The notes under the pieces were generated by a model. It saw only the letters and a program-made list of their open reading frames with translations. It did not search any database and was not told where the DNA came from. The position numbers and the translations under genes were made by a program. From NCBI GenBank assembly GCA_001818315.1, contig MHKF01000006.1:17148-81147 (forward strand): a stretch of DNA of 64,000 bases. The letters run 5' to 3'. Source of the DNA: Candidatus Kerfeldbacteria bacterium RIFCSPLOWO2_02_FULL_42_19 (GTDB lineage: Bacteria; Patescibacteriota; Patescibacteriia; HO2-48-17). Shown here piece by piece: positions 13,263 through 55,688 of this stretch. The stretch's first letter is position 1, and every line of letters begins with the position of its first letter.

Positions 13263-13304
13263 GATTTCAGAATTATTTAAAGCATCTGACTATATCATAC
13301 CAAA

Positions 13305-26666: not shown

Positions 26667-26699
26667 TCTCTTTGCAAATTTCTGTTATAATACTATTAT

Positions 26700-27086
26700 A
26701 TGACACAGCAAAAGAAATTCGCCGTGCTCATTATTGAAGATGATACTTTTTTGCATGAGCTCTCGAAAAAAAAGTTTATACAACAAGGATACGAGGTCAT
26801 TTCGGCATTTAACGGCGAAGAAGGAAAGCGAAAAATCCAACAAAAATTTCCTGACATTATTCTGCTCGATCTATTGCTCCCAGAAATGGATGGGTTGGAT
26901 CTCCTTAAAGAATTGAAAGAAAATAGAGCAACTCAACATATCCCAGTCGTTATTGTAAGCAATTACAGTGATCGCGAAAGAGTGCAGAAAGGTTTAGCGC
27001 TCGGAGCGAGCGATTATATCATTAAGGCGCATTTCACGCCGGATGAAATTGTACAAAAAGTGAATACACTTTTGAAAAAATCATAA
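26700..27086 (+). CDS. Single-domain response regulator (REC only)
   Basis: It carries FAVLIIEDDTFLHELS...DIILLDLLLPEMDGLDLL...PVVIVS...ASDYIIKA. Confidence 0.8.
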   Translation: MTQQKKFAVLIIEDDTFLHELSKKKFIQQGYEVISAFNGEEGKRKIQQKFPDIILLDLLLPEMDGLDLLKELKENRATQHIPVVIVSNYSDRERVQKGLALGASDYIIKAHFTPDEIVQKVNTLLKKS

Positions 27087-27090
27087 CATT

Positions 27091-33552: not shown

Positions 33553-33933
33553 GCCACCATCATAACGTGGATGCTCAAAGAACATAATCCTTTCTTCTGC
33601 TACGTAAGAAAGAATATCCTGTGCGAAAATCAGCGCAAGCATCGCGAGGCAGAGCACCTTATATGTCATCCACGCAAGGAAAAGATAGAAAAATAACATT
33701 GCAGTCAAGAGCAAAATCACAGTGCACCTTCCTTCCTTCCTGATTTATCTCAAACGTTTATGGAAAAGAACTTTGATATGAAAACAAATTACTGAATTTA
33801 TGTCAAGTTGACAGATATTCGAAAAAATTTTTTAACATCAACCTATCCATTAATCATACCCAATGCTTTAAAAAATTGCGACGGCTTTCAGAAAGTGCTA
33901 TAATAAATTTAAGTTTTCCACAAGTTTCATCTT

Positions 33934-35022
33934 TTGAACAAATCATCATTCCAAGGGGACAGAGTTCAAAACAATATGCAAAAACTCGACCTCAGTCATC
34001 CGCAGAATCCGTTGGAGCAACATGAGGATACTCCAACAGAAGCGGTAGCAAAAGAAACTATCAAACAAAAAGCAAGTCTTTGGGTTTTTATAGTCATTGC
34101 GCTTCTCACACTCATTTTGGGAAGTGCGAGTATTTATAAGCAGCTGACAGGTCCCTTTCAGCCGCAACTCAAGAATAGTAATCAATCAGCTGTCGTACTC
34201 GGAAAATCTGAACTTGAGAAATTACAAGAATTAAAAACGAAAGACACCGATAGTGATACATTGAATGATTACGATGAGCTCTATGTGTACGACACAAGTC
34301 CCTATTTAGCGGATTCGGATAGTGATAATGCAAGTGACGCGGAAGAACTGAAAGAAGGGCAGAATCCAAATTGTCCGCAAGGCACCATTTGTGATCAACC
34401 AAGAAAAAGCGATACACCCGCAACAAATTCAGGAGTAACCCCCCCCAGTGCACCTAGCAATACAATAACTCCCAGCATTCCAACGAACGCAGCTCCAGCG
34501 ACGAACACAGGCACAGCAAATCAAACTGCAGATACAGGACAGAATCAGCCAAGCATCACAGCCGACATCATTCGTCAAACGCTTAAAAATGCAGGCGCGC
34601 CGGCTGAATCAGTGGACGCGATGAGCGACGAAGCACTCCTTACGCTCTACGAAGAAACAGTCAAAGAAACGGGCTACAGTGGCACGACGACACCAGTCAA
34701 TAGCGCGAGCGACGATTTTGTTCCAGATGAAGTGGAAAACGCTTATAGCGACCTTCTTGTAGATACCGAAAGTCCCTACGGAGCGCTCGGTGAAGTATCA
34801 GCAGAAACACTGGAGCAATTGAAAAATCTTCCGCCAGAAGAGATTCGAAAACTTCTGATACAGCTTGGTGGCGAAGAAACGTTTATCCAGACGATCGATG
34901 ACGCGACGCTTCAGTTTATTTTTTTGCAAGCTATCGAAGAAATTATTCAATCGCAAAGCAAACCAAGCACAAGTGCAAACGCGAATACAAATTCAGGGTC
35001 AGTCAACACCAATCAAAAATAA
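33934..35022 (+). CDS. Membrane-anchored protein with TSP3-like acidic Ca-binding repeats and a T/P/N/A-rich low-complexity tail. It is the first gene of the large operon.
   Basis: It has a single TM helix (LWVFIVIALLTLILGSASIY). DTDSDTLNDYDE and DSDSDNASDAEE follow the DxDxD spacing of thrombospondin type-3 and calcium-binding repeats. The C-terminal half is low complexity (APSNTITPSIPTNAAPATNTGTANQT...). The start may be the internal Met at 33976. Confidence 0.5.
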   Translation: MNKSSFQGDRVQNNMQKLDLSHPQNPLEQHEDTPTEAVAKETIKQKASLWVFIVIALLTLILGSASIYKQLTGPFQPQLKNSNQSAVVLGKSELEKLQELKTKDTDSDTLNDYDELYVYDTSPYLADSDSDNASDAEELKEGQNPNCPQGTICDQPRKSDTPATNSGVTPPSAPSNTITPSIPTNAAPATNTGTANQTADTGQNQPSITADIIRQTLKNAGAPAESVDAMSDEALLTLYEETVKETGYSGTTTPVNSASDDFVPDEVENAYSDLLVDTESPYGALGEVSAETLEQLKNLPPEEIRKLLIQLGGEETFIQTIDDATLQFIFLQAIEEIIQSQSKPSTSANANTNSGSVNTNQK

Positions 35023-35027: not shown

Positions 35028-38000
35028 ATGCAAGTAAACGATGCAAGAAAAAACAAAAAATACACTCGCGCTCACTTAGGCTGGAAGAAGATGCTTTTCA
35101 TGTCGGTATTTACATTGGGAGTCTTGCTACAAAGTTTTATGATAGCAAGACCTGTCTTCGCCCAGGGTTTCATTGGTGACCCATTTTTTGATCCGCACGG
35201 GTTTACTCCTGCCGAAGAAATTAACTATACTGCTGTCGAACCACCGGGAGGAGGTCTTCCAGTAGCAGTGACAGTGGACACTCCTGGGTTCTTCCGAAGA
35301 ATCATGGATAAGATTGCGACGATAGCAAAAACAATATATGAAAAAGCTGGACGCGCCGCAGTGAAGGGCATGATCAGGGTAGTCTTGACGAAAGTTGCGT
35401 ATGAGACGGCTGTGTGGATCGCTTCGGGAGACAATAAGCAGAAACCGTTGCTTTTTACAAGTCAATGGGATGAATATCTGGAAGATGCTGGTGACGCAGC
35501 ATTAGGTGAGGCGTTCCAAACACTCGCCATGAAAAATGGATATCTACGATTCAATGTCTGTGATCCTTTTGATAATCGTGTGAACCTCGCGATTCAGTTG
35601 GGATTAGATTTTGCTACCGGTAGGCCGCAAAAACCGCAGTGTACTTTTAAAGAAATGCGCGAACGCTGGTCCGAAGTGAGAGATGATCCAGCAGCACAAA
35701 AGAAATTCCTTAGTAATTTCAAAGTCTCTTGGGACATTGAGCAAAATGACATCGGTCAATTTTTATCATTGCAAACAACGTTCCTTGCAACTCAGGCACA
35801 AAAAGAAAAATCAGCACAATTGCAAAGACAGGCATCCGATCCCTTTAAAGACGTGACTGGAAAAATTTCGCAGTTCATCGAAACGCCAGCACAAGTCGTT
35901 GCAGGAGTACAAAAGGACGCATTTGAAAAATCTTCCAATGAATTCTTGGTACTTGTAGGTGACCCAGCAGCGGATGCGCTTGGTGTTTTTACAAGCACAT
36001 TGATGTCAAAACTTTTAGCTCGCATCAAAGGTGGAGTGTATAGCTTTGGAGATCTTGTCAGAGAAGATTACCGTAATGAACAAGGCGGTTTCGTCGATGC
36101 AACTGCGTTTGCTCCTGCTGGAGGTGGATCGGGGCTCTTTAATCCATCGGGTGCTTCGGCTCCAGGAGTCGCCGCAGCCGAAGCGCATTACGCAAGTATT
36201 GCGGATATCAGCTTTTCAAGTGGCGACGAATTTCAGGTGCTCGCGGATCTCGTCGCGTGTCCATCCGAAGGCGCGCAAGCGATTAACTGTACGATCGACG
36301 AAAAATTTCGCATCGCGATTAACGACCGACTTACGGTGCGTGAAGCGCTCGATCAAAAACTTTTAGATGGTAAGAAACCGTTTGGGTTTGGAACGCAGGG
36401 ACAGCCGATTCCCAATGTGCGTGATGGATATTCATATCGCAGCGTCATTGTGCTCCAACGCTATCTCATCGTACCGGTTGGTTGGAAGATCGCCGCGGAA
36501 TACATCCGTGATTTTAATCCCGGAAATTTCACTTTAACTGATCTTGTATCAGCGTATGATAAATGCGGTCCAGATAATTACTCTCCTTTCTGCGGACTCG
36601 TTGATCCTGATTGGGTTCTGAAAGCGCCGGCAAACTATTGTCGTAAGCAAGGTTTCGGCAATCCAGTCGCAAAAGGTGAATACGTCGATCAGGATGGGAA
36701 TCCAGCAACACCGAGAAAGCCTTTTATCGTCCGGCAAGAAATCTGCGTGGACGACCAATCGTGTATTCAGGAAAATCCAGACGGCACATGTCGCGCGTAT
36801 GGATACTGCACGGAACAAAAGCGCATCTGGCGATTCGTTGGAGAACGCTGCGAGCCAGCCTATAACACTTGCCGCACGCTGACAGATACCGCAACAGGGC
36901 AACGCGCGTCCTTGCTTTTGAACACTGTAAACTTTAATGATTGTAGTCGTGATGTAGCCGGTTGTCAGTGGCTGTGTCAAGTATTTAATCCATTAGATAA
37001 CGACTGGCAGTGCGCTGGCAACGGGGTCGTCTATCCGACGTGCGACGCTGCACATGATCCGGATGGCGATGGCAACTGCGATGGAACCACAGGAGGGGCA
37101 ACATGCGCAACAAATCCGTGTGCAATAGAATCAGGCCGTTTTCGTTGTCAGAATACAGACGATGAGATATGTTACCTGAATCCAGAAAGCGATAATCCTC
37201 GGGAGTTTAACGACGCAAGTATCAGTTTAGACCGTGATGCGCCGAACTGTGACAGTAAAAATGCCGGCTGCGAAAAGTTTATCAGCACTCGTAATGGCAC
37301 GAATCTCATCAATAACCCGAGTTTCGAATACTTTGCCGATAATCCATTAGACCCACAGCCGTTGACATTCTCATCAGAAGGTGCGGGCGATGTTTTAAAT
37401 GACAACGACGCCGATGTGTTTGGATTTTGCGATGGTCGCGGTGGAGACACACACGCGTGCGATGATGATAGTGATTGCGCTGGTGAATGCGTCGGCTGGC
37501 AATCATTCGGAGCGCCCATTGTGCTCGGCGTTTCCGATCCTGTGGCGCGTGGACAAGTTGCAGTGAAATTTGTGGGTACTAATGATGCAGAAGCAGACAC
37601 ACTCATGTACGAATACGAAAGTAATACCGAACTTGCGAATCGTTCGTTTGACTTGAGTTTTCGTTACCGAAAAACAGGAGGAGGAGGAGCTTGTACAGTA
37701 AAATTGAAATATAACACCGATCAAGATTCAGATATTGCCACTAAAACTTTAGCAGTCAATGAAAGTTGGACAGAAGAAAAATGGAGCACAGATCAACTCA
37801 TAACACTTCCAAATACTCGGCAATGTTATGGTGGAAATGACGGGAGTCCTTGTACGAGAAACAGTGAGTGCGGCGGCGGGGTCTGCCGCAGCGATACTTC
37901 ACTGGAGATTCGTATTGGTGTCGAACCGGCAGGGTGCGAACTCTTGATCGACGAAGTAAAACTTGAAGAAATCAAACCTCTTAATTTCGAAAGTGCAACC

Positions 38001-41000
38001 GCCACAGCAGCATATTCGGAATATGCGAGTATCAACACAATACATCTCAATGGGCAGCGTTTGAGTTGCGAACCAAAAGATCTTGGTTGCGAGGCATATA
38101 CGGATGTCAAAGACAAAAGCGTTATTCCGGCAGTGATCACGAATCCAGTTTCAGAACTTTGTACCCAAGGGGTTAATAAAGATTACTCCAAAGCAAGTTG
38201 TAATCAGTGTGATCAAGGGCAAGTCGGGTGCGATTTCTATGAGGAAGTGCCGCTTAAGAATCAACCGCCAGATCCACTCGCGCCCGAAAGAACTGGTTTT
38301 TACTGTTCCAATTATCCAAATAGTGAAGCGCGAAGTTGCACCCCAGCATATTGCGACAATAATCCAAGTATTCTCTGTGATCCAACCGCTGATATTAATA
38401 CCCTTCGTGTCGTATGTGGACATAGTAATCCGACATGTGTGAACTCCGCGCCAGCGCAGTGCGGCGATCCAAGTGCAACATGTTTGCCACAAGTTTCGAT
38501 CATCCCGAAAACCGGTAAAAAATGTCGCGCTCAATACGTAGGCTGTGAAGAATACACGAATCTCGACATCGTAGGACAAGGCGGTGAAGGTTTGGAATAC
38601 TATAATCGTATCAAACAATGCGTTAAACCTGTTGATGGCGATCCGACGCAAGGCACGTACTACACTTGGGTCGGTTCAGAGACCGCTGGATATCAACTCA
38701 AAGCATTCAAACTCAAAAAGAGTAATATTACAGATCATAGCTTTTGCCCGGGTAATCAACAGATTTGTGATGTGAATGACATGATTAATGAAACAGGGAC
38801 AGCGCCTTGTACGCAACTTGATGTTGGTGATACTGCGAATCCAAACGCTGATTGCCAAGATACGATACAAGGTGATCCCGCAACATGTATAGAAGCAGAT
38901 CTTGAGACGAATCCAGACTGCGGACAATTCTACGATAGCGGTGGAAATATTTTCTACCGTTTGCGTTCGCGAGTGATTAGCGTTTCTGAAGAATGCAATC
39001 CCTTGCGCAGCACGATTGATAACAACGTTTACTACGCGATTCGATCACAGAGTAAAGTATGTCCCGCGCAAATGAACGGCTGCCGAGAATATAAAGGCAG
39101 CGCAGGGAACAACGTGCGCATACTCCTCCAAGAGAATTTCGAAAATACTACTTTTGAGGGAGCAGGGCTGAGCAATGAAGGCGCGATCGCCGGTTTCGGC
39201 GACCAGTCGATGGAGATTCGCATGGAAAATAACACAGATCCCAATGAAGGCTTTACTGATATACCGCAAACGCTCCTTACCAAAGGCAACGCCTACATCG
39301 TTTCGTTCTGGGCACGCAGCGGCACAAGTTCTGAAACAAATACACTCACAGTCAGCGCGATCTTCCGCAAGAAAGATGGCAGTGGCGTTCTCGAATTCGG
39401 CGAAACAACCCTCGAGCCGACGAATGACTGGAATTTGTACCGACTCGGTCCACTTGTTTTTGATCGCGAAGTTACCGATCAAGAAGTCTTTGCAATTCGC
39501 CTTAATCCACAAGACGCCAGTTACCCAAAGAGTCTTCAAATCGATAACCTCAAAATCACCGACAGCACGAGTCAATACCTGATTAAAGGCAGCGCGGCTA
39601 TTTGTCCAAAATTTGAAGGCTGTCGGGAATACTCAGATAGACAAGGCCGCACGAATTATCTCAAGTCGTTCACGCGGCTGTGTGAGCAGCGTTTCCTCGG
39701 CTGCGAAATTGCACTTGATACGCAGAATTCAAATCTCCCATTTGCTCAAAGTTTTAACTTAAACAACCCTGAAAAAGATCCGCAAGGTAAAGATGACGTT
39801 ATTGTTCCAGCGGATCAAGCGACACTTGTCGTAAATAATCCGAATAACTTTTGTTTTGCGACGGCTGAAGGTTGTAGCGCGCTCGGCTCCCCGAACGAAA
39901 ATAAGCAAGAAAACAAAATCGACGGATTTAGTACGACATATCGGATTAAAGATCCGGATAATTACGGTACGACATTGTGTCAGGATCATCAGATCATGTG
40001 TCGCGAATACCAATACGGAGAGACTCAATATTATTTCAAAGACCCCGGCAATAAGGCCTGTGAATATAGAATCGTGGGGCAGGATTTTAGTCCATCCGCA
40101 CCGAGTAACGATATATACGGCTGGGCAAAATTTGGTAAAGACGAAGGCTGTCCATTATTCAATCCATATGATTTTCCATCACGACCAAGCGGTTCCGTGT
40201 GTGCCGCGGGCGATCGTGTAGGTCAGCCGTGTCAACGAGACAGCGAATGTCCGGTAAGTTTCTGCACGAGCGATATTGCAGATGATCCAACAACACCAAA
40301 TACTGACGAAAGTCGCGGTTGGGTAGGTGCGTGTCCCGAAAGCGCTGATTCGTGCACATTGTATCTGGATACCTACGGCACGAATCCACGTGACGAAGAA
40401 ATTTTGAATTCAAGTTTCGAAACCGATGTACGTAATAACGCAACAGGAGAATACACTCCCGACAATATTCCTGATGATTGGCATCTCACCGCCTGCAGTG
40501 ACGGAACTTGCACGATCGCACGTGAAACCGGTCAGATTCGTAGCGGCGAAGCAAGTCTCAAAATCGAAGGAGGAGTAGGCAATCCAACCTTTACCATCGC
40601 AAGTGAACCCATGCGTGTGGATTCCAACGATATTTATACCCTGCGTGGCTATGTCCGGAAAAATTTCAATGGCATATTTGATCTTGGTCTCGCTTTCTTC
40701 GATCGTGATGGCAATCTCATAAGCGAAAATCCATTTATTGCTGCAAAACAAGAAGCGCTTACCGATCTGTCAGAAAAATGGGTTGCCTTTCAAGGAACGA
40801 TTGGTCCAACACAAAAAGGACCCGAACTCGCATTGGTGGAGTTCCCGCAAGATACTTTGGAAGTCAAGATTCTCATTGGTGGTACGACCGGTAGTGGCGG
40901 CATTTTTGTCGATGATGTTTCGTTCGATCACAACGACGAATATTATTATCTCGAAAACAGCGTCGACACCAAAAGCTGTCGAGGAAACGCAAATCGGGAT

Positions 41001-44000
41001 GATGGATGTGTAGTTTTGAATAACGTCACACAAAGTACACAAAATTATCGGGCTGATGATCCACGCACGCCGTTCGATGAATCAAAGTCTATCACGAGAA
41101 CCGAAGGCTACGACCCCGCGATTGCGAGTTGCGAACTCAATAGCATCGATGAAAGTAACACATGCCGCTGGAAACCAAACGCAGGAGTCGGAAATCAGGT
41201 GATTAAGGTGCGTCCAGATCGCGATTGCAAAGAATGGCTCGCCTGTTCGAGCGCCTACGCCGTAGAAAATCCGGACACTCGAGCGAAAGATTACTACTGC
41301 TTCGATGTTGGTCGCTGTCGTAATCTCTCAGAGGACGGTGTGTGCAATGACTGGGTTTACAAACCCGACCGCTACGAACTGACTGAAGAAAATATGACCG
41401 AAGTCAATTCGGCGCCGGGAGACACCGAAGAGCTTGAAAAAATACAGAATCTTACTGGGTACGTAAAAGCAGGTCTCAAAGCAGTCGTACCAAATCCACA
41501 AGGTGGGAGTTCACCAGCTCGTATCAAAGGATATTATACTTTCGACGCGATGCCGCAGGTAGGAATCTCTGGTAGGAATTCTTCACGTGACATTGTGTAC
41601 AGTGGAAGATTCGAAAACACATTCTGCGCTCAAGGGAGTATCGGCGCGTCTTGCACACTCGATCAACACTGTCGTAGAGTCGATCCGGCAACAGGGCAAC
41701 TTACAGATACAGAACCTGGAGCTTGCGTCAATCCACCCCGCGGTTGGTCAAAAACTGGCGGAGAAGGCAACAGCATTCAGGTGATTGATTTTGATGAGAC
41801 GATCGCACTGCCGTATGAAACCGCCCCAGAAACGATTCAAGTAGATTTACCTAATGTCTTGAAGGTCGTACCAAGTGGGGAACAAAGTAACGGTGCACAG
41901 TTGATGTTGCAGGATGATCTCATTCAACCCAATGGAGAGTATGTTCTTTCTTTTGACGGGCGCTATTTTACCGCGCCGACAGATGACGACACGTTGCGCA
42001 TTGGATTTTCCTATAACACAACCTGCAATGAAACAAGTTGCACGCGGGATAAAGTAGACATGTTCTCCGACGTGTGTCGTGGCGGAGTTCGTGACGGCCT
42101 TTTCTGCGACATCAACGCAGGTCAAAAACGATGCGCGGGTGGAGATAATAACGGCGATGAATGTAGCGCCGAAATAGATTGTCCAAACGGAACCTGCACC
42201 GCAAAAGTATGCATCAATGCAGGAGGAAACACGGGCCAGTCCTGTCTGGATGTGGACATTTGCCGTGTAGGACTCCCAATAGAGGAAGTAGGATTAGCGC
42301 GCTGCGGTGTGCCCTCCAACTGTCCTGATGGCGAATGTGTCCAAGATGCATTCAAAATGACTGGACAGATGCAACGCTATACTCTTGGCCCCGTCATGGT
42401 AAGTAATAAACCAACGGTGAAAGAACTTCGGTGTTCGAATGACATCAATAGTAGTTGCGTCAACGATGATGACTGTTCGGAAGATGGCATTTGTATCGAG
42501 CTTTCCACAACATTACTCTTCTTTGAACAAAGAGCAGCGAGTGCAAACACACCTTTCTTAATAGATAATGTTTCCTTGAAACCAGTACTGGAAGTGAGTA
42601 AAATTGTTGGTCTCGTTTCGCGCAACTGCCGAAGTTATCCGCGAGAAAATGCTCTCGGTTGCGATTACTTAGACATTAACCGTATTACCTATCGCGGATG
42701 GTATGGTTATTGTCTGGAATATGACCCATTGAATAAAAATCAGTGTTTGGTCTGGTGGCCAGTAGATGTAATCGGTGGAGAATCATCGCTCGCACCGCGT
42801 GTTCGAGCGGGTTACAGCGAACGCACACCTCTGTACATGTGTGTGGCCTCCAGCGGAACGCGTATTCGGGACACAAAGTATTGTGTGAATCATGACAATC
42901 CTGAATATGCCGGCAAAGTCTGTGAGTTGGATAATCAGTGCGGCGGGGGTCGATGTATTACTATGCAGGATACTGGCGAATACTCTCTCTTCCCAAAAGA
43001 TTATACATTCAAAGCAGCATATGATAATAATGGAAAACTTTTTTGCGGTAATACACACTCGCAGGTTTTTGCGTGTACAAGCAGTGTATTAACAGAACAA
43101 CAAGCGATTTTGGAAGATATTGTAGATCGAAAAGTCTGTGTCACACAAACCGAATGTACAACGGACTCTGAATGCGCTGTACAGGTACCGGAAACAGGAC
43201 ACATAACCTATACAAAATGCCTCGATGGCTTTTGTGTTGATACGCGGACATGCGAAAATGATGGTGATTGTCCGAATTCGAGTACCTGCGAACCCTGGTA
43301 TGATGATACGGTACCTGAAGATGAAATTATCATCCCCGGATATTGCGCCGGAAATATGTTTCGGCCGTGTAATATTCGTAATGAAATGAGCGGCGATGCC
43401 ACTAATTCGGATTGTTTTCTATCGGTCGGTGAATTCGGTGAAGAATGTATTCCAGATTTTGATATACCAGAGACCAGAGTGGAAGGAAAAGTGCGAGTAG
43501 CCATTCCTGAATGCGATGAAGATAACCTTCCGGGCGACGACGTGACTATAGTTGATTGGGGTCCATGTATTCCGTCGATTTGTGACTATATGGGTGGCGT
43601 ATGTGCTTCAGAACCAGAGAGTAGTGCAGGACTCCCAACGTATGGTGCTGTGTGTTTTAACGATCCAAGTTTGAGTTGCGGCGACGGTGTCAATTGTCCT
43701 GCAGACGCAGGAAGCTGTGTGTTCTCAACAACCACACGTTGGCAATGTGTTGGTGGAGCGAACGAGGGACTACCATGTACGCAGCACGGTGACTGTGACA
43801 GTAACCTCTGCTCAATGTGGCTACCACGTTTCGATGGCGTAACTGGCAGACTCTATAATTTCGCTGCTCAACTCGAACAGATCCCAGGCTATGCTGATAT
43901 TCAACACGTTATATTTGACACATTTGTTGCTGGTCAGGTTCAACCGAAAGATACTATTATTATTCCTGTAGGATACGTCACAGACCCTGGTTGTAATCAA

Positions 44001-45779
44001 GATAATACCGAATGTGGATATGGCGGTTCAGGTCCTGGTCTTGGAGGCGATAACTATGATATACGCGCGGTCAAGGCAAATGGCGGTATGGTATCTTATG
44101 GATTGAACCCCACTGATAATCCTTTTAACGATATTCCAACAGGTATCCTCTATCAACCGAAAGAAGGTGAAAGCATTGATCAACTTCCACAAGGAGGCGC
44201 CTATGGGAGTGCGAATCCACAGAGAGATCCCCCGGATTTCCTCGTGTGGTCGCAGTCTACTCAGGGTTCAAATAGATGGAGATCTAACGGCCGAGTTGTA
44301 GGTCTCTGGCTTGATAGCGAAAACGGAAAAATAAAAAATGCTTGGGCACTCATCTGGAATGACGGATCTATCAATGAAATTCGCTTCAAATTTGTTCTGC
44401 GTGAATCGTGTCAGTATTTCGCGAAAGTTGTGGATTTCGATGGAAAAAATGTAGCATGGGTGCAACGCTCGAAACGTGGGAGTGCGTATCATGTACCTGA
44501 AGTACTCTTTAATTTTTATCATGATTTCAATCCTTTCGGTGGAATGACTCCGGCCACTGGCGATGATCCACAAACGTGGGATAGTCGAATTCTGACAGAA
44601 ACAAGTCCTGGCGAAGTAGGGAAACAGCCCCCATTTGTAGAGCTTCCGGATGATTATCGTGATCCAGAGCAAGGCATTGATGATGCAGTAGGTGATCCTC
44701 CAGTTTGGCAATTCCGCGCCGGAAGGCCGTATGCGTGTGTAGGGAATTGCGGTGTAGGAAAGTGTGATAATTGGGTCACAGATATATCTTGTACAACGGA
44801 TGCGCGATGTTATCTTGAAGGATCTCACGGACGATGCATTGGGGCCATTGGTATTTGTGTGAATGCCCAGAATCAAGCGGCAGAAAAACCAACATATTGT
44901 AATAACGATCAGAATTGTCGAGACGCAAATCTGCTCTTCCCGATTTGTAAAACGGACTTCCGAAAAAATGGTTATTATTACATCAATAGTAGGGATCGTT
45001 CCGCACAAGAACTGGCGGTTGCAAAAAATGCTGTAGTTGACAGACTGCGATATGTATTTGCGGATATTTTGGAAGTGCTGCGGTATACACAACCCGGAAC
45101 TGGTGTTGATAATTTAGGAGGTTTCGTCACTCTCCCTCCGGAGACACTTTTTACACAAGCTGATGGGTTCACATATTATAAACTGATGCCTATCTGTTCA
45201 GCACCGCGCGGTAATACTGATTACTGTGGCTTGAGACCCGAAGTGAGTCAGATCAAAATGAATGAACTGCCAGAACAGGACAACATGGAAATCGATCTGG
45301 GAAGGGGTGGAGAGGTATCATTAAGTTTTGCTGCTCGTGTTGATTTGGAACAGTATCCATTGAAACATATTGTCATTGACTGGGATGATGGAGCCGATCC
45401 ATTTGTGGATATTTGGGAAGCAGCGCCACTCACGAAACACACATATATTCATGCATATAAGTGTAAAGGACCAGAGGATCCAAATTATAACGCCTATACC
45501 GGCGGCAATCCCGATAGTCGTTGTCATTTTAATCCTAAAATTCGTATCGTCGATAACTGGGATTGGTGTAGTGGAAACGAAATTGCGAATATCGGGCCGG
45601 GGGCAGACATCGCAACAGATCTCACGAATTGCAGTGATCTCGCGCAAGATTGTCGTAATCTTCAGAACGCTGTGGATGACGGAAGTGGCAATAACGGTGA
45701 TAACGGCGAGTGGACCTGTAACACCTGGGATGTGATTGGATCACCTGGCACCCTTGGATTGATTCACGTGAATCCGTAA
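35028..45779 (+). CDS. Giant (3583 aa) secreted cysteine-rich multi-domain surface protein with repeated CBM4_9/galactose-binding-like beta-sandwich modules
   Basis: It is an uninterrupted 10.75-kb ORF. The N-terminal signal-peptide-like segment is KKMLFMSVFTLGVLLQSFMIARPVFAQG. Hundreds of Cys residues occur in recurring motifs (CRAYGYC, CRAQYVGCEEYT, NGCREYKGS, EGCREYSDRQG, MCREYQYGE, LGCEAYTD, GCEKFIST). At least four modules begin with N..FE and carry CBM4_9-type strands, starting near aa 760, 1360 (ENFENTTFEGAG...GNAYIVSFWARSG), 1790 (ILNSSFETD...YTLRGYVRK) and 2290. No LPXTG or other recognised anchor motif is at the C-terminus. Confidence 0.7.
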   Translation: MQVNDARKNKKYTRAHLGWKKMLFMSVFTLGVLLQSFMIARPVFAQGFIGDPFFDPHGFTPAEEINYTAVEPPGGGLPVAVTVDTPGFFRRIMDKIATIAKTIYEKAGRAAVKGMIRVVLTKVAYETAVWIASGDNKQKPLLFTSQWDEYLEDAGDAALGEAFQTLAMKNGYLRFNVCDPFDNRVNLAIQLGLDFATGRPQKPQCTFKEMRERWSEVRDDPAAQKKFLSNFKVSWDIEQNDIGQFLSLQTTFLATQAQKEKSAQLQRQASDPFKDVTGKISQFIETPAQVVAGVQKDAFEKSSNEFLVLVGDPAADALGVFTSTLMSKLLARIKGGVYSFGDLVREDYRNEQGGFVDATAFAPAGGGSGLFNPSGASAPGVAAAEAHYASIADISFSSGDEFQVLADLVACPSEGAQAINCTIDEKFRIAINDRLTVREALDQKLLDGKKPFGFGTQGQPIPNVRDGYSYRSVIVLQRYLIVPVGWKIAAEYIRDFNPGNFTLTDLVSAYDKCGPDNYSPFCGLVDPDWVLKAPANYCRKQGFGNPVAKGEYVDQDGNPATPRKPFIVRQEICVDDQSCIQENPDGTCRAYGYCTEQKRIWRFVGERCEPAYNTCRTLTDTATGQRASLLLNTVNFNDCSRDVAGCQWLCQVFNPLDNDWQCAGNGVVYPTCDAAHDPDGDGNCDGTTGGATCATNPCAIESGRFRCQNTDDEICYLNPESDNPREFNDASISLDRDAPNCDSKNAGCEKFISTRNGTNLINNPSFEYFADNPLDPQPLTFSSEGAGDVLNDNDADVFGFCDGRGGDTHACDDDSDCAGECVGWQSFGAPIVLGVSDPVARGQVAVKFVGTNDAEADTLMYEYESNTELANRSFDLSFRYRKTGGGGACTVKLKYNTDQDSDIATKTLAVNESWTEEKWSTDQLITLPNTRQCYGGNDGSPCTRNSECGGGVCRSDTSLEIRIGVEPAGCELLIDEVKLEEIKPLNFESATATAAYSEYASINTIHLNGQRLSCEPKDLGCEAYTDVKDKSVIPAVITNPVSELCTQGVNKDYSKASCNQCDQGQVGCDFYEEVPLKNQPPDPLAPERTGFYCSNYPNSEARSCTPAYCDNNPSILCDPTADINTLRVVCGHSNPTCVNSAPAQCGDPSATCLPQVSIIPKTGKKCRAQYVGCEEYTNLDIVGQGGEGLEYYNRIKQCVKPVDGDPTQGTYYTWVGSETAGYQLKAFKLKKSNITDHSFCPGNQQICDVNDMINETGTAPCTQLDVGDTANPNADCQDTIQGDPATCIEADLETNPDCGQFYDSGGNIFYRLRSRVISVSEECNPLRSTIDNNVYYAIRSQSKVCPAQMNGCREYKGSAGNNVRILLQENFENTTFEGAGLSNEGAIAGFGDQSMEIRMENNTDPNEGFTDIPQTLLTKGNAYIVSFWARSGTSSETNTLTVSAIFRKKDGSGVLEFGETTLEPTNDWNLYRLGPLVFDREVTDQEVFAIRLNPQDASYPKSLQIDNLKITDSTSQYLIKGSAAICPKFEGCREYSDRQGRTNYLKSFTRLCEQRFLGCEIALDTQNSNLPFAQSFNLNNPEKDPQGKDDVIVPADQATLVVNNPNNFCFATAEGCSALGSPNENKQENKIDGFSTTYRIKDPDNYGTTLCQDHQIMCREYQYGETQYYFKDPGNKACEYRIVGQDFSPSAPSNDIYGWAKFGKDEGCPLFNPYDFPSRPSGSVCAAGDRVGQPCQRDSECPVSFCTSDIADDPTTPNTDESRGWVGACPESADSCTLYLDTYGTNPRDEEILNSSFETDVRNNATGEYTPDNIPDDWHLTACSDGTCTIARETGQIRSGEASLKIEGGVGNPTFTIASEPMRVDSNDIYTLRGYVRKNFNGIFDLGLAFFDRDGNLISENPFIAAKQEALTDLSEKWVAFQGTIGPTQKGPELALVEFPQDTLEVKILIGGTTGSGGIFVDDVSFDHNDEYYYLENSVDTKSCRGNANRDDGCVVLNNVTQSTQNYRADDPRTPFDESKSITRTEGYDPAIASCELNSIDESNTCRWKPNAGVGNQVIKVRPDRDCKEWLACSSAYAVENPDTRAKDYYCFDVGRCRNLSEDGVCNDWVYKPDRYELTEENMTEVNSAPGDTEELEKIQNLTGYVKAGLKAVVPNPQGGSSPARIKGYYTFDAMPQVGISGRNSSRDIVYSGRFENTFCAQGSIGASCTLDQHCRRVDPATGQLTDTEPGACVNPPRGWSKTGGEGNSIQVIDFDETIALPYETAPETIQVDLPNVLKVVPSGEQSNGAQLMLQDDLIQPNGEYVLSFDGRYFTAPTDDDTLRIGFSYNTTCNETSCTRDKVDMFSDVCRGGVRDGLFCDINAGQKRCAGGDNNGDECSAEIDCPNGTCTAKVCINAGGNTGQSCLDVDICRVGLPIEEVGLARCGVPSNCPDGECVQDAFKMTGQMQRYTLGPVMVSNKPTVKELRCSNDINSSCVNDDDCSEDGICIELSTTLLFFEQRAASANTPFLIDNVSLKPVLEVSKIVGLVSRNCRSYPRENALGCDYLDINRITYRGWYGYCLEYDPLNKNQCLVWWPVDVIGGESSLAPRVRAGYSERTPLYMCVASSGTRIRDTKYCVNHDNPEYAGKVCELDNQCGGGRCITMQDTGEYSLFPKDYTFKAAYDNNGKLFCGNTHSQVFACTSSVLTEQQAILEDIVDRKVCVTQTECTTDSECAVQVPETGHITYTKCLDGFCVDTRTCENDGDCPNSSTCEPWYDDTVPEDEIIIPGYCAGNMFRPCNIRNEMSGDATNSDCFLSVGEFGEECIPDFDIPETRVEGKVRVAIPECDEDNLPGDDVTIVDWGPCIPSICDYMGGVCASEPESSAGLPTYGAVCFNDPSLSCGDGVNCPADAGSCVFSTTTRWQCVGGANEGLPCTQHGDCDSNLCSMWLPRFDGVTGRLYNFAAQLEQIPGYADIQHVIFDTFVAGQVQPKDTIIIPVGYVTDPGCNQDNTECGYGGSGPGLGGDNYDIRAVKANGGMVSYGLNPTDNPFNDIPTGILYQPKEGESIDQLPQGGAYGSANPQRDPPDFLVWSQSTQGSNRWRSNGRVVGLWLDSENGKIKNAWALIWNDGSINEIRFKFVLRESCQYFAKVVDFDGKNVAWVQRSKRGSAYHVPEVLFNFYHDFNPFGGMTPATGDDPQTWDSRILTETSPGEVGKQPPFVELPDDYRDPEQGIDDAVGDPPVWQFRAGRPYACVGNCGVGKCDNWVTDISCTTDARCYLEGSHGRCIGAIGICVNAQNQAAEKPTYCNNDQNCRDANLLFPICKTDFRKNGYYYINSRDRSAQELAVAKNAVVDRLRYVFADILEVLRYTQPGTGVDNLGGFVTLPPETLFTQADGFTYYKLMPICSAPRGNTDYCGLRPEVSQIKMNELPEQDNMEIDLGRGGEVSLSFAARVDLEQYPLKHIVIDWDDGADPFVDIWEAAPLTKHTYIHAYKCKGPEDPNYNAYTGGNPDSRCHFNPKIRIVDNWDWCSGNEIANIGPGADIATDLTNCSDLAQDCRNLQNAVDDGSGNNGDNGEWTCNTWDVIGSPGTLGLIHVNP

Positions 45780-45791: not shown

Positions 45792-48700
45792 ATGGACGAA
45801 GTCAAGAAAACATTTAAAAAGAGAAGTTACAAAAGCCGTCTGAGGCGTTGGATACCGCGCATCACAGCGGCGTGGATGGTGTTGATTATCCTCGCAGCGT
45901 TTGGACAATTTTTTGGGGATCACATTATTCCAGCAGTATTAGCGCAAGATAAGCAAGAACCAGATTGGTTAGCACTTCAAATCGCGAAGATTCTGTTTTA
46001 TGTATTTGTTATTCCATTAGGGACGCTCACGACACTTTTGCTAAGGGTATTAATTTATGTTTCAACGATTGGCACTGGAGAATTTACAAAGACTTCGGGC
46101 GTTGTAGTCGGTTGGGCGCTAGTGCGCGATATCAGCAATATGTTTTTTATTATTATTCTTTTGGTGATTGCTTTCGCGACGGTATTGCGCATCAAAACCT
46201 ATAATTATCAAGCGCTCTTGCCGCGGCTTGTGATCATGGCAGTGCTCATCAACTTTAGTAAAACCATCGCTGGAATCTTCATCGATTTTTCTCAGGTGAT
46301 CATGTTGACGTTTATTAACGCCATGAGAGACGCAGCAGAGGTTGGACTCGCTGGAGTACTGGGACTTGGAGACCTGTTGAATCTTGATCAGTCGGTCTTA
46401 CAGGATCCAAATACCCTAAAGGGTATTACCAATACTCAGGTGATTGTGACCCTTATTGCAGCAATTCTTATGCTAGGAATCGCAGCTGTTACTATTCTGA
46501 TTTTTATTGTTACGCTGGTGTTTCGAGTTGCTATGTTGTGGTTTTTGGTAGTACTTTCGCCACTCGCGTTTCTTTCCTGGACATTTCCTAATGCTCGAAA
46601 GTATTCAGCGCAGTGGTGGGGTGAATTTGGCACTTGGACAACCATTGGTCCCATTACTGCGTTTTTCTTGTGGCTCTCGCTCCTCATTGTAGAAGCATCA
46701 AGGCAAGTATTTGTGGATCCCAATAATCAGGAGAGTCTCTCACTTTCCATACCATTAGTTGATCCAAAAACAGTAACAACAGAGAGCGAATTGAATGTCG
46801 GATTGAGTCGCGCAACGAGTAGCGCAGGGGTTTCAAATTTTATCCTTGCAATTTCACTCCTCCTTGCAAGTCAGAAGTTTATTTCACAAATGAGTACACA
46901 AGCAGGGAGCGTGCTCAGTCGCTTTACCGGAAAAGGTGCGGCCTTCTTAGCAGGCGCCATGATTGGCGCATACAAATGGGGCGGACGCACCGTGGGTGGA
47001 GCAGCATACGGACTTGGTCGCGCTGGAGTACAAGGAATAGATTATGCGGCTGGCGGTATTGGTGGGAGAAATAGATTTCGGCCATTTTTAAGCGATAGAA
47101 TTATTCATGGTGTTTCAGAAGGTCTTTCCGGGGTTCCTCTGATTGGAGGGTCGGTCAGAGAATGGCATGCGAATCGAACGCACCGTCTCCGCGAGGAAGC
47201 AAAGAAAGCCGGTGAATACACAAAATACACCACTTATGCTGAAGCAGAGGATTTGATCGGTTCAATACCATTTACGCGTCCAAGACAAGCAGCGCACCGA
47301 GCGCTCAGTAATAGAATGTTTCACATGATTCCCGGTTTGGATACTGCATTAGGACATTTTGAAAATATGGATACCGACGATATGAAACAGGCAATGCCTC
47401 ATGCATACGCCGCTTTTCGCAATCGAGTTTTTACAACTGGGAGTAACGCACAAATCCAGCGATATCTCCAAGCACTTACTAACGACGCATCTTTTTTTAC
47501 GCATCAAGCAGGAGCTGATCGAGCAAAGGCTGCGGGTTGGAATGCAGCAGCAGCGAGATTCGGGGAAAGAGAAGGCCTTTTGCCCCAACTTGGTGGTGTG
47601 GGTGGAGTACCAGCACCAGCGAATGCTGCGAGATCGGTAATAGGTAATGCTAACTTACCTGTTGGTGATCCTAGCAGACTCGTGGTAGATGAGACTCAGT
47701 TTGGACAGTATGATGCCCAGCTTAGTTTTAATCCGGCACATCCTGAAGCTGGACGCTATCACATGGAAAGGCCTTTTGATCGAGAAAAATATTTGCGAAC
47801 TCTGCGAATGTCACAACAGCAAGGCGACGCGTTGTTTCAATCGCCGGAATTTAATGCGGAGATGTATTATCCGCAGGCTCAGTTTGGAGCTATGCAGAAT
47901 CAGCGAAAAGCTCTGGGACTTGATACGCGTGATCAGCAACTTGCACTTCAGCAGGTTCGCGTTGAGCAACAACTCAACCGCATTGGCGGCGCTGATTCGC
48001 TCATCCGTAAAGGCGAGCGTGGGGACACAATGCACAGCGCAACACTTGCCGTCGATTTTAGCGATGTGCGGAGTCCCGAACTTGCACATATACAGGGCAA
48101 GCTTGGCGCAAATCTTTCGGGGACTGATAAACAAGCGTTTATTCATGAGGTCGCCGGCGCTATGGAAAATGTAGCGACGAACAAAGAAGCAGCTCAAAAA
48201 CAATGGAGCGAGACCGCTGAACCTGAAAAAGAAAAAATTCTACGAACCGCACTGAGTGCGCCTGGAAAATCTAACGCACAAGTACAACAGGAACTTGAAA
48301 GTCTCACTGAAAATCAGGAGATCGAACTTTTTCAAAAATCTCAGAAAGATCGCGCTGCGAAATTCCGTACGCATGCCGGTAGTCTGGATACATTGAGTGT
48401 TATTAACAAGGGTAGAGAGATCGGAGACGCACGCATGATCCTGACACACGAAAAAGCGCATGATGAAATGCACGCGCTTTCAACTGAAGAAAAAGACGAA
48501 GTATGGAGTGCAATTCCACAAGAAGCACAGAAACATCTTACAGAGCAGGTGCAACAAAATTGGGCAGGTCTCAAGGTCGATCCTGCTGATACGCCCGAAG
48601 TCGTGCAACAAAAACAAGCAGATATAAAAGAAGAAGCACTCTCGGAAATTATGGCTTATAGTCGTTTGAAAGGAATCGGAAAGAAAGTGCCGGGTGGAGC

Positions 48701-49670
48701 GGCGGTTACACAGATTGCAGCAGGAGGCGCTTTTGCCGAAGTTTCAAAAGACGTCGCCCTGATGATCAAAGAAAAATCCGAAGCAAAAATGCAAAAAATA
48801 GCTGCGGATCCTGTGCATCAGTTTTTGAAAGGTCAAGGTTTTGGCGGTGCGCCAGAAATAAATTATTCCATCGATGTCGTAGAAAAAGGTCCTGAAGGCA
48901 AAGAGACGGTTGGTGCAAAGTCATTCAATAATTTCACTGATCTTGCTGCGTTCGTACAAGCAAATCCAAATAAACTGACTGAAGAAGCGCGAAAAAATCT
49001 CGCCCAGGGTGCTCCATTTAAAGTTGGAATGAATTCAGGCGCGGCTTCATGGATGAAAAATCTCTCAGAAACGCAAAGGGCAGCCATCGAAAAAAGTTGG
49101 GTGCAAGTGACCGAAAAATTGAGACTTCCTGGCATGACGCAGGCACCGAAGATTCCATTTAAAGAATTACAAGCAACTGCAGCGCCGCGCGAAACACTTC
49201 AAACTGCCGAAGTCACAAAGCAGTCACGTGAAGAAGTATTTGAAATCACAGGGGAAAGTGTAAAGGAGGAAGAAGGGGGAGAAACAGCAGGAGAAGAACT
49301 AGGCGCAACACGTGCTGACATAGAAAAACTTGGGGAAAAAATGAGTCGCATCGAAAGGGGTGTGCGCAAGATTGGACCGAAAGTCGAAGAGACGGCTGGT
49401 AGAGCGGAATATCTGACGCGACTGAAACTGCAAGAAAAGATGGGTGCACCTCTTGAAACAGCGAAAGAAGAAGCTGAAAAGAAGGAATCCGAACGCAAAG
49501 TAGGCGGTCGCATTAGCGCGCTTGAAGAACGCATGAGCGGAAAAGAACCGGAAACACCGCGCGTAACACCAGAAACCAAACCAGAAGCTATCGAAACGCC
49601 AGCAGGTGAAACTCCAACAACAACGATACCACCAAAAGAAACACCACCAACGCCACCGAGTGAATTATAA
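45792..49670 (+). CDS. VirB6/TrbL-like polytopic membrane protein with a ~900-aa hydrophilic C-terminal extension
   Basis: The N-terminal ~400 aa contains about 7 to 8 TM helices arranged like TrbL/VirB6 (ILFYVFVIPLGTLTTLLLRVLIYV, MFFIIILLVIAFATVL, VIVTLIAAILMLGIAAVTILIFIVTLVFRVAMLWFLVVLSPLAFL, and others). The remainder is charged, coiled-coil-like, and ends in a Pro/Thr-rich tail (ETPTTTIPPKETPPTPP). The family call rests on topology and operon context and is inference. Confidence 0.45.
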   Translation: MDEVKKTFKKRSYKSRLRRWIPRITAAWMVLIILAAFGQFFGDHIIPAVLAQDKQEPDWLALQIAKILFYVFVIPLGTLTTLLLRVLIYVSTIGTGEFTKTSGVVVGWALVRDISNMFFIIILLVIAFATVLRIKTYNYQALLPRLVIMAVLINFSKTIAGIFIDFSQVIMLTFINAMRDAAEVGLAGVLGLGDLLNLDQSVLQDPNTLKGITNTQVIVTLIAAILMLGIAAVTILIFIVTLVFRVAMLWFLVVLSPLAFLSWTFPNARKYSAQWWGEFGTWTTIGPITAFFLWLSLLIVEASRQVFVDPNNQESLSLSIPLVDPKTVTTESELNVGLSRATSSAGVSNFILAISLLLASQKFISQMSTQAGSVLSRFTGKGAAFLAGAMIGAYKWGGRTVGGAAYGLGRAGVQGIDYAAGGIGGRNRFRPFLSDRIIHGVSEGLSGVPLIGGSVREWHANRTHRLREEAKKAGEYTKYTTYAEAEDLIGSIPFTRPRQAAHRALSNRMFHMIPGLDTALGHFENMDTDDMKQAMPHAYAAFRNRVFTTGSNAQIQRYLQALTNDASFFTHQAGADRAKAAGWNAAAARFGEREGLLPQLGGVGGVPAPANAARSVIGNANLPVGDPSRLVVDETQFGQYDAQLSFNPAHPEAGRYHMERPFDREKYLRTLRMSQQQGDALFQSPEFNAEMYYPQAQFGAMQNQRKALGLDTRDQQLALQQVRVEQQLNRIGGADSLIRKGERGDTMHSATLAVDFSDVRSPELAHIQGKLGANLSGTDKQAFIHEVAGAMENVATNKEAAQKQWSETAEPEKEKILRTALSAPGKSNAQVQQELESLTENQEIELFQKSQKDRAAKFRTHAGSLDTLSVINKGREIGDARMILTHEKAHDEMHALSTEEKDEVWSAIPQEAQKHLTEQVQQNWAGLKVDPADTPEVVQQKQADIKEEALSEIMAYSRLKGIGKKVPGGAAVTQIAAGGAFAEVSKDVALMIKEKSEAKMQKIAADPVHQFLKGQGFGGAPEINYSIDVVEKGPEGKETVGAKSFNNFTDLAAFVQANPNKLTEEARKNLAQGAPFKVGMNSGAASWMKNLSETQRAAIEKSWVQVTEKLRLPGMTQAPKIPFKELQATAAPRETLQTAEVTKQSREEVFEITGESVKEEEGGETAGEELGATRADIEKLGEKMSRIERGVRKIGPKVEETAGRAEYLTRLKLQEKMGAPLETAKEEAEKKESERKVGGRISALEERMSGKEPETPRVTPETKPEAIETPAGETPTTTIPPKETPPTPPSEL

Positions 49671-51334: not shown

Positions 51335-51784
51335 ATGCAATTTGTGGTTCCGCAGTTTATTGAAGTCGAAAACAAAATTATCGGTCCGATTTCAACAAGA
51401 CAATTCATTCTCCTGGTAATTCTGGGAGTTATTGAATTTTTACTCTTTCGACTTGCGCCGGTATGGATGTTTATTATCGGTGGCGTCATTACGCTTGTAA
51501 TGTTTATCACCCTTGCTTTTGTGAAAGTGAACAGTCAGCCTTTTCATTTATTTCTCCTGGCAATTATCCAAACACTCAAAAAACCATCACAAAGAGTGTG
51601 GACCAAAGCAGGACACTATCAAGAAAAGAAAAAGAGCAAAGAGAAAGAGTCGCTTCCAAAAAGTATTCCAATCAAGCCACATTTTACACGCTCAAGACTT
51701 GCAGAACTTTCGCTGGTGGTCGATACCGGCGGCGCATATCGTGATACAGAAGTGTTCAATCTCAATCCATTCAAACATCAATAA
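51335..51784 (+). CDS. Small two-TM membrane protein, VirB3/PrgI/TcpE-like by position and topology
   Basis: The 149-aa protein begins MQFVVPQFIEVENKIIGPISTRQFILLVILGVIEFLL, with a second TM at WMFIIGGVITLVMFITLAFV. It lies immediately upstream of the VirB4 pieces, as in MPF-FA type systems. Confidence 0.4.
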   Translation: MQFVVPQFIEVENKIIGPISTRQFILLVILGVIEFLLFRLAPVWMFIIGGVITLVMFITLAFVKVNSQPFHLFLLAIIQTLKKPSQRVWTKAGHYQEKKKSKEKESLPKSIPIKPHFTRSRLAELSLVVDTGGAYRDTEVFNLNPFKHQ

Positions 51785-54928: not shown

Positions 54929-54945
54929 GAGTATAGATAATTATT

Positions 54946-55680: not shown

Positions 55681-55688
55681 TTAAATTT

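Follow-up and report, generated by a model that had tools for sequence, protein, structure and literature searches.

A large part of bacterial diversity is made up of Patescibacteria, which appear to live attached to other microbes. Their type IV secretion systems (T4SSs) are MPF-FATA-like and mostly without relaxases (PMC12102498). A Saccharibacterium, the one species tested, cannot grow epibiotically without its T4SS (PMC10633639), and the function of the system and the means of host contact are unexplained (PMC10633639, PMC11665869). A phylum-wide survey of these systems detected no PrgB-like adhesin and noted KsgA near virB4, and the protein described here goes unmentioned in it (PMC12102498). 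Here we describe a gene for a giant, cysteine-rich protein at positions 35028–45779 of a 64,000-nt stretch of DNA from Candidatus Kerfeldbacteria bacterium RIFCSPLOWO2_02_FULL_42_19 (contig MHKF01000006.1, positions 17,148 to 81,147 of the forward strand), referred to below as the window. We read the protein as a Sec-exported, disulfide-stapled fiber that would bind glycans, either of the host or of the wall, and would cooperate with the patescibacterial T4SS, and we put the probability of this reading at roughly 0.55.

The nearest functional analog would be the PrgB-type adhesin, known from the prgA-prgB-prgC genes of pCF10. Like PrgB, the giant protein appears to be Sec-exported and is encoded just upstream of MPF-FATA-type channel genes, and it may share the role presumed for PrgB, which is to bind wall polymers of the partner cell for T4SS engagement. 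It can hardly be counted as a PrgB-type protein, however, as it differs in both defining features tested: it shows no sequence homology to PrgB in Pfam, NCBIfam and PDB sequences, and it has no LPXTG. It is also disulfide-rich and is made of jelly rolls of the carbohydrate-binding module (CBM) type CBM4_9 together with family-specific blocks. PrgB is reportedly about 1,300 aa long, so that the giant protein is nearly three times longer.

Very large proteins are also known from other ultrasmall, host-dependent bacteria. Vampirococcus lugosii encodes membrane proteins of 1,392–4,163 aa (PMC8080830) and Patescibacterium danicum encodes FhaB-domain proteins of more than 5,000 aa, reported without full-length homologs (PMC11809585). 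Both sets are likewise very large and exported, and have been proposed to act in host recognition and attachment (PMC8080830, PMC11809585). Those giants from other candidate phyla radiation (CPR) bacteria carry different domains (PKD, FN3, integrin, DUF11, FhaB). Unlike them, the family of the Kerfeldbacteria giant protein is collinear over ~1,300 clusters, has an N-terminal domain of its own and holds a fixed place beside the T4SS.

The initial annotation had called the giant gene a single 10.75-kb open reading frame (ORF) of 3,583 aa, the internal repeats of which might have been collapsed or expanded during assembly. The ORF scan agrees with the first point, as 35028..45779 is the sole long ORF over the interval with no competing long ORF. 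As to the second, neither Tandem Repeats Finder nor a direct-repeat search picked up repeats in the DNA of the gene, be they tandem or dispersed, and blastp of the protein against itself revealed no internal repeats. The identical protein is recorded on 8–10 contigs from NCBI, JGI/IMG, ENA and Logan, and its 90% cluster has a member from a second metagenome-assembled genome (MAG) that is likewise 3,583 aa long. Since the gene is repeat-free and independent assemblies agree, an assembly artifact or repeat expansion is unlikely, and the idea was rejected. The features of the gene and of the ~380 kDa protein are given below, with block coverage taken from blastp of the giant protein against the listed members of its family (151 inclusive as the denominator).

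35028..45779, plus strand: giant gene, ATG start, 3,583 aa, 166 Cys; OGY84493.1, 'hypothetical protein', Ca. Kerfeldbacteria
35028..35165, plus strand: Sec-type signal peptide, aa 1–46, predicted cleavage between PVFA and QG; hydrophobic segment aa 21–39
35310..37037, plus strand: family-defining N-terminal domain, aa ~95–670 (~570 aa); first half helical, second half beta and rich in disulfides
37290..37997, plus strand: M1, CBM4_9-like jelly roll, aa 755–990, with two 4-Cys knots in loops; beta-sandwich model; present in about one third of the family members listed
38475..39089, plus strand: conserved beta-rich block, aa 1150–1354, with invariant Cys pairs; model confidence (pLDDT) 85–90; covered in ~140 of 151 members; unrelated to the CBM modules by hhalign
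39090..39602, plus strand: M2, CBM4_9, family-wide, aa 1355–1525
39603..40379, plus strand: conserved linker block, aa 1526–1784, with C-x6-C hairpins (several CREY-type) and one 4-Cys knot; 16 of 16 Cys at least 90% conserved (24 homologs)
40380..40997, plus strand: M3, CBM4_9-like, aa 1785–1990, called from a weak Pfam match (E 0.024) and hhalign to M2
40998..41579, plus strand: conserved block, aa 1991–2184, covered in ~120 of 151 members; hhalign probability against the CBM modules <3%
41580..42572, plus strand: M4, CBM4_9-like, aa 2185–2515, split by large Cys-rich insertions
42573..43007, plus strand: conserved block, aa 2516–2660, with ...GWxGYCLExDP...WWPVD...; ~110–120 of 151 members
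43008..44177, plus strand: lineage-specific, very Cys-rich region, aa 2661–3050 (~390 aa); 0–3 of 151 members align
44178..45776, plus strand: conserved C-terminal region, aa 3051–3583, covered in 40–100 of 151 members, without anchor motif

By its sequence the N-terminus is a Sec-type signal peptide, with a basic n-region followed by a 19-aa hydrophobic core (aa 21–39) and then PVFA and QG, between which cleavage is inferred rather than predicted by a dedicated tool. The site is of the conserved P-x-x-A-x-A type. The signal pattern L-L-Q...P..A.A is kept in a homolog at 31% identity, and L33, L34, Q35, P42, A45, and G47 are invariant when compared with the homolog P0001. Neither an LPXTG-like motif (regular expression LP.[TSA][GAN]) nor a C-terminal hydrophobic or transmembrane (TM) segment could be found in the giant protein, and Pfam scans of the protein, its tiles and 15 relatives revealed no SLH or other wall-binding domain. 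The signal-peptide-like segment and the lack of LPXTG or another recognized wall anchor, both claimed in the initial annotation, are thus upheld. As the signal peptide is conserved, export would be simplest via Sec with folding outside the membrane. The Sec signal, together with folding and cross-linking outside the membrane, makes passage through the T4SS channel unlikely, and the giant protein is probably not a T4SS substrate.

Evidence for CBM modules comes from profiles, profile comparisons and structure models. Pfam CBM_4_9 (PF02018), the profile for CBM families 4, 9, 16, and 22, matches aa 1365–1468, in M2, with a whole-protein score of 31.6 bits against a cut-off of 25.9. The same region scores 21.1 bits as a 200-aa tile, so that passing the cut-off depends on summed weak matches. 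A second, weak match was seen in the tile scan at aa ~1792–1930 (E 0.024), and CBM_4_9 matches were found in 10 of 15 diverse family members with a best E of 2.6e-16. Family sub-alignments cut for each of the modules M1–M4 were compared by hhalign. M2 pairs with M1 (88%, E 3e-6, 130 columns) and with M3 (94%, E 1e-7, 131 columns), and M1 pairs with M3 (80%). M4 pairs with M2 over its C-terminal strands only (last 49 columns; 92%, E 5e-7), and its N-terminal half pairs with M1 (E 5e-4, 88 columns). Three control blocks compared with the CBM modules in the same way all stayed below 3%. M4 is the weakest of the four calls, being split by Cys-rich insertions and lying outside the modeled region. 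The at least four CBM4_9-like modules of the initial annotation were accordingly recovered, M2 by Pfam and M1, M3, and M4 by their hhalign links.

An AlphaFold model of aa 741–1940, made with a 25-sequence alignment, is almost entirely beta, with a predicted local distance difference test score (pLDDT) of 69.5 and a predicted template modeling score (pTM) of 0.55. Beta-jelly-rolls in this model can be superposed on solved CBMs, and Foldseek searches against the PDB returned reelin repeats, CBM22, CBM16, and toxin receptor-binding domains. The best matches over long stretches were the reelin repeats 5b4x, 3a7q, 2e26, and 6a48 (E 5e-9 to 1e-7). A reelin repeat has a Cys-rich EGF module between its two jelly-roll subrepeats, and the giant protein shares this alternation with small disulfide units. 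The likeness is architectural only, at 9–10% identity and with no evolutionary link, and the small Cys units are not EGF modules, as Pfam gave no EGF match in the giant protein. Judged from profiles and model together, the modules are bona fide CBM4/9/22-type folds, and carbohydrate binding is predicted for them. No recognizable catalytic domain is attached to them. Scans of Pfam, NCBIfam and PDB sequences showed no catalytic, toxin or enzyme domain in the giant protein: NCBIfam gave no match, and the sole phmmer match among PDB sequences was at chance level (E 0.14). Near the C-terminus, the motif IDWDDG...HxYxHxY...DNWxWCSG resembles PKD by eye only; one of the 15 family members has a PKD_4 match (E 0.01).

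The 166 Cys residues, an even number, make up 4.63% of the giant protein compared to 0–1.35% in 15 neighboring proteins, in line with the very high Cys density first noted. Cys motif counts were compared with 1,000 shuffles. The motif C[RE][EA]Y was observed 6 times (shuffle mean 0.10), GC..Y 5 times (0.55), C-x5-6-C 43 times (12) and the 4-Cys unit C-x7-10-C-x5-C-x3-5-C 6 times (0.09), and none of these four counts was reached in any of the 1,000 shuffles. Of the recurring motifs listed in the initial annotation, C[RE][EA]Y and GCxxY are therefore enriched, whereas C-x-x-C-x-x-C does not occur in the giant protein (shuffle mean 0.33). CxxC is depleted, with 1 observed against a shuffle mean of 7.5.

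Two kinds of Cys unit can be distinguished. The first is the C-x5-6-C hairpin, and a C-x6-C-x-x-[YF] hairpin is found 15–20 residues ahead of the 'N..FE' start in each of M1, M2, and M3. The second is the 4-Cys knot, inserted in jelly-roll loops or linkers. Three of the four CBM modules carry hairpins or knots inserted in their loops. The disulfide-knotted mini-domains suggested at the outset thus correspond to real Cys units, but the idea that they stand in tandem was rejected, as they are scattered between the beta-sandwich modules or inserted in loops. In aa 2661–3050 there are 6–11 Cys per 100 aa until aa ~3000, and none in aa 3001–3100. Of the 56 Cys within aa 741–1940, 38 reach a conservation of at least 90% among 24 homologs with 33–47% identity. 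The non-conserved Cys fall in twos or fours within lineage-specific insertions (933/942/948/953, 1109/1117/1130/1137, and 1240/1247). Gains and losses in twos or fours, the even total and the depletion of CxxC point to structural disulfides, and the Cys residues are, to judge by these patterns, evidently structural. Metal-binding or redox Cys clusters were rejected because of the CxxC depletion. The protein also has the features expected of a putative DsbA-dependent exported protein, namely an export signal, an even number of conserved Cys and an oxidoreductase encoded in the same gene string.

By alignment, the giant protein is no idiosyncratic adhesin but belongs to a very large Patescibacteria-specific family with collinear conservation. 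An exhaustive HMMER search with aa 1–1200 as the query gave 1,299 representatives at E≤1e-3, each standing for a cluster at 50% identity, and 979 of them reached E≤1e-30. Among the 150 matches listed, nearly all are 2,500–5,100 aa long (median 2,874 aa) with 2.1–5.9% Cys. Conserved blocks follow in the same order at aa ~100–650, 1150–1800, 1950–2200, 2500–2620, and 3100–3530, and variable insertions are found at aa 650–1150 (which holds M1), 1800–1950, and 2200–2500, as well as in the very Cys-rich stretch at ~2650–3050. The lineage-specific region at aa 2661–3050 may be a rapidly evolving, host-facing specificity region.

The N-terminal domain (aa ~95–670) is matched in essentially all of the 150 representatives listed. 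It has 13 invariant or nearly invariant Cys as well as invariant D/E/W residues, and its motifs include AY(D/E)TAVWIASG, DAAxG, PVGW, LVDPxWVLKAP, and GYCT. The giant protein has this domain with its motifs, followed by the collinear blocks B–E, as is characteristic of the family. The domain has no match in Pfam (also scanned in 15 relatives) or NCBIfam, and its profile gave no match to PDB sequences. An AlphaFold model from 16 sequences reached a pLDDT of 55, with the N-terminal half helical at low confidence, and Foldseek of this model against the PDB returned nothing below E 0.88.

Relatives occur in 491 genomes, with one genome scanned per species. Most of the 80 genomes listed are named as Kerfeld-, Falkow-, Buchanan-, Kuenen- and Parcubacteria, Paceibacter and the 'Patescibacteria group'. 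About 24 of the 80 are co-assembly MAGs labeled 'uncultured Gammaproteobacteria', which we take to be placeholder names, and three are labeled Bdellovibrionales, Zixiibacteriota, and Planctomycetota. Every member looked up is either called 'hypothetical protein' or unnamed, and no description of the family was found in the literature searched, the coverage of which is incomplete. The short homolog P0001 (703 aa; GCA_040960175.1, locus L002) aligns over the N-terminal domain and diverges abruptly at ~aa 630. Its contig is 5.9 kb long, and a convergent ORF follows the end of the protein at 703 aa. Most probably a giant gene was truncated here or assembled as a chimera.

In the window, the giant gene is part of a string of 13 same-strand genes from 33934 to 58563. 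The gaps between them are only 0–30 nt, which suggests one transcription unit. The string and its candidate promoter contain the following features around the giant gene:

33876..33904, plus strand: sigma-70-like promoter candidate, TTGCGA-17-TATAAT with TG, from a consensus scan only, in a 380-nt gap after KsgA
33934..35022, plus strand: small single-pass membrane protein ('up362'), one TM segment at aa 43–61 and a D-rich TSP3-like calcium-binding repeat
45792..49670, plus strand: extended VirB6/TrbL-like polytopic membrane protein, 1,292 aa, 8 TM segments and a ~900-aa tail
49676..51304, plus strand: 542-aa protein without family match, at the same position in T4SS-linked loci
51335..51784, plus strand: PrgI/VirB3-like protein (Pfam PF12666, E 9.6e-9)
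51790..52473, plus strand: TrsD/TraC-like protein, a free-standing VirB4 N-terminal domain of 227 aa, with partial NCBIfam VirB4/TrsD matches
52476..54311, plus strand: VirB4-type ATPase, 611 aa (Pfam P-loop_TraG, AAA_10, TraC_F_IV)
54323..56930, plus strand: three membrane or exported proteins of 201, 244, and 413 aa, with TM segments and weak family hints only
56931..57665, plus strand: membrane-anchored DsbA-like oxidoreductase (Pfam Thioredoxin_4, DSBA), with an N-terminal TM segment and FQCPYC
57670..58563, plus strand: T4SS (VirB2-like) pilin (Pfam PF18895, E 3.4e-12; NCBIfam ICE pilin-like)

Only 5 nt separate the up362 stop from the giant gene. The listed TTG start of up362 is doubtful, and the ATG at 33976 gives 348 aa as called in ENA. 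The protein also has a Pro/Thr-rich linker, its homologs show weak or faint Pfam TSP3_bac matches, and it may be a membrane tether or an assembly partner of the giant protein. On the other side, a 12-nt gap separates the giant gene stop from the gene for the 1,292-aa protein. This protein has no Pfam match itself. Its homologs in two related loci, L086 and L088, match PF19590 TrbL_3 and pair with the window protein at E 5e-43 and 1e-36, and from these two results the VirB6-like assignment follows. Its layout of 8 TM segments and a ~900-aa hydrophilic tail is that of extended VirB6s (PMC12857230). The tail is highly charged and Cys-free, with a Pro/Thr/Glu-rich end.

Further downstream, the C-terminal ~140 aa of the 542-aa protein are conserved in L086, L088, and L089, and conservation of the 201-aa protein extends to L086 and L089. 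Homologs of the 227-aa protein match PF26593 TraC-like, and the split of VirB4 into an N-terminal-domain protein and an ATPase is typical for Patescibacteria (PMC12102498). The initial annotation had placed the giant gene immediately upstream of a VirB6-like gene and a DsbA gene in the same operon. The first placement is confirmed by the 12-nt gap and by TrbL_3 through the homologs, and the second is confirmed as a closely spaced same-strand gene string, in which the DsbA-like protein has a CPYC site. No coupling protein (VirD4/TcpA), relaxase or VirB1-like hydrolase was seen in the T4SS string among the ORFs scanned (25002–64000). An M23/LysM peptidase is encoded on the opposite strand at 27943–29388 and is syntenic in 19 related loci.

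Gene context was compared over 81 related loci, 53 of which could be assessed on the downstream side. Upstream of the giant gene, a TSP3-like gene is found in 73 of the 81, KsgA in 61, and LeuRS in 47. In 33 of the 53 loci no more than 1.5 kb lies between the giant stop and the start of a VirB6-like gene, and in about 10 more such a gene starts somewhat further downstream. The recurring order is KsgA - TSP3-like - giant - extended VirB6/TrbL-like - PrgI - split VirB4 - DsbA - pilin. Six loci had enough downstream sequence (10 kb) for a closer comparison: the window, L086, L088, L089, L083, and L084. In the first four of these the order giant - TrbL-like - X - PrgI - TraC-like - VirB4 is found, with the giant gene upstream of MPF-FATA-type channel genes. 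The same holds in part for L083 (P0029, 2,731 aa), where only the TrbL-like gene is kept and is followed by toxin-antitoxin-like genes. L088 has kept the T4SS linkage and lost the upstream housekeeping synteny. In four rearranged loci (L028, L059, L074, and L078), DsbA and pilin are found on the opposite strand, upstream of the LeuRS-KsgA-giant block (~1–5 kb from LeuRS), and so are still near the giant gene despite the rearrangement. T4SS linkage is frequent and survives rearrangement, but is not obligatory. In L084 (P0012, 3,898 aa), the giant gene is followed by thyA, folA, AhpC, and SOD genes.

The window is chromosomal and housekeeping in character, with LeuRS, Sua5, KsgA, PNPase, guanylate kinase, RadA, and RecG. 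A mobile conjugative element was considered and rejected, given this housekeeping context and the fact that no relaxase was seen in the window. An integrase at 11064–11987, with a XerC/D-type domain pair, is 23 kb away. Three histidine kinases and three response regulators, two of them with two receiver domains, are encoded at 5977–7107, 12200–15026, and 25002–27915, and the set at 25002–27915, one kinase and two regulators, shows partial synteny with the giant-gene locus in 10 related genomes. An ORF of the CCA-adding/poly(A) polymerase family (9331–10938) overlaps tRNA-Arg (9280–9355) and tRNA-His (9386–9457); its Pfam domain begins at residue 83, so that the real start must be further downstream. 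On the minus strand, 633–4670 holds a surface-polysaccharide set with a Wzy_C O-antigen-ligase-like protein, a GT4 glycosyltransferase and a Wzx-type flippase. This set matters if it is glycans of the cell itself that the CBM modules bind.

In the reading that we prefer, the signal peptide would be cleaved and the giant protein, now beyond the cytoplasmic membrane, would fold as a long chain of domains rich in beta structure. Up to 83 disulfides, in C-x5-6-C hairpins and 4-Cys knots, could staple this chain, aided by the membrane-anchored DsbA, and the four CBM4/9/22-type jelly rolls would provide the capacity to bind polysaccharide chains. The non-CBM blocks, chiefly the ~570-aa N-terminal domain, would form a family-wide scaffold that presumably docks non-covalently to the cell surface, with the flanking TSP3-like protein and the extended VirB6/TrbL-like protein as candidate docking partners. 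Working with the T4SS, such a fiber could take the role that PrgB-type adhesins have in Gram-positive conjugation systems. The original proposal of an oxidatively folded fiber displayed or exported by the adjacent apparatus stands as regards secretion, structural Cys, CBMs and the tie to the T4SS, whereas export by the apparatus has become less likely.

Several points weigh against this picture of an adhesive fiber. As no anchor was found, retention of the protein at the surface is an assumption. The N-terminal domain has no assignable fold and the protein may do something other than adhere, and the M4 call is based on split and short hhalign matches. None of the window ORFs scanned was recognized as a DsbB or VKOR partner for the DsbA-like protein. 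Adjacency to the T4SS is not universal either, with none within 10 kb downstream in L084 and only the TrbL-like gene in L083, and since LeuRS, Sua5, and KsgA are syntenic too, the gene order may partly reflect general collinearity.

The giant protein might instead be a structural part of the T4SS, that is, an extracellular stalk or docking complex that, in these monoderm and pilus-bearing systems, replaces outer-core or pilus-tip components and belongs to the conduit leading to the host cell. Its many non-CBM blocks are collinear over ~1,300 clusters, which is unusual as adhesins tend to shuffle domains, and the gene is kept in ~1-Mb genomes at a cost of ~10 kb. It also holds its fixed place directly before the VirB6/TrbL-like gene, with gaps of 5–12 nt, and has DsbA and pilin nearby in the four rearranged loci. 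We nevertheless regard a structural role as unlikely: neither the whole protein nor its tiles match any T4SS component in Pfam or NCBIfam, L084 and L083 hold the giant gene without an adjacent VirB4, and the lineage-specific insertions at aa 650–1150 and 2661–3050 better fit a host-facing surface protein. That L084 has a giant gene with no T4SS genes nearby would also agree with a general cell-envelope scaffold, S-layer-like or spanning and organizing the wall, which binds the cell's own wall polysaccharide and whose closeness to the T4SS is inherited gene order. The synteny reaching LeuRS, Sua5, and KsgA, which are unrelated to secretion, argues in the same direction. Yet the giant gene in L088 is still ahead of TrbL-like, PrgI and VirB4 without the housekeeping synteny, the intergenic gaps are tight, an S-layer annotation occurs nowhere, and no SLH or wall-binding domain was found, and we give an envelope scaffold a rather low chance.

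A T4SS substrate or effector that moves in two steps, with Sec export and oxidative folding followed by release through the T4SS as for pertussis toxin and Ptl, would account for the missing anchor. A signal peptide and disulfides, combined with a T4SS for which the window shows no coupling protein, formally resemble the Ptl logic (PMC12857230). In a monoderm, however, Sec already places the protein outside and there is no obvious barrier for a second step. No toxin or enzyme domain was detected, and a folded, disulfide-stapled protein of ~380 kDa is implausible as a passenger of the channel, all of which makes such a route very improbable. Equally hard to credit is a polysaccharide-degrading enzyme with a catalytic N-terminal domain and CBMs for targeting. 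CBM4/9/22 modules are classically appended to glycoside hydrolases, and no part of the protein is better conserved than the N-terminal domain, in which there are invariant D/E/W residues. Against this, there is no sequence or fold match to hydrolase or lyase families, the N-terminal half of the domain is predicted to be helical at low confidence, and a non-catalytic scaffold of ~3,000 aa would be atypical.

As a fiber cooperating with the T4SS, the giant protein would bring to light an undescribed, very large family behind a T4SS-associated surface lectin or adhesin with a predicted function, and the family offers a concrete candidate for the host-contact element that has been missing from the patescibacterial T4SS. 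Its variable insertions (aa 650–1150 and 2661–3050) may hold information on host specificity, and the family as a whole represents extreme extracellular disulfide engineering in bacteria with minimal genomes. A more speculative idea, which we consider doubtful, is that the giant, TSP3-like and extended VirB6/TrbL-like proteins together make up an unrecognized, host-contacting extracellular part of the T4SS, a disulfide-stapled lectin stalk that docks onto glycans of the host wall and positions or extends the channel. If true, such a stalk would be no accessory adhesin but a structural component of the T4SS, of a new class specific to the phylum, and it would be through that channel that auxotrophic episymbionts exchange material with their hosts.

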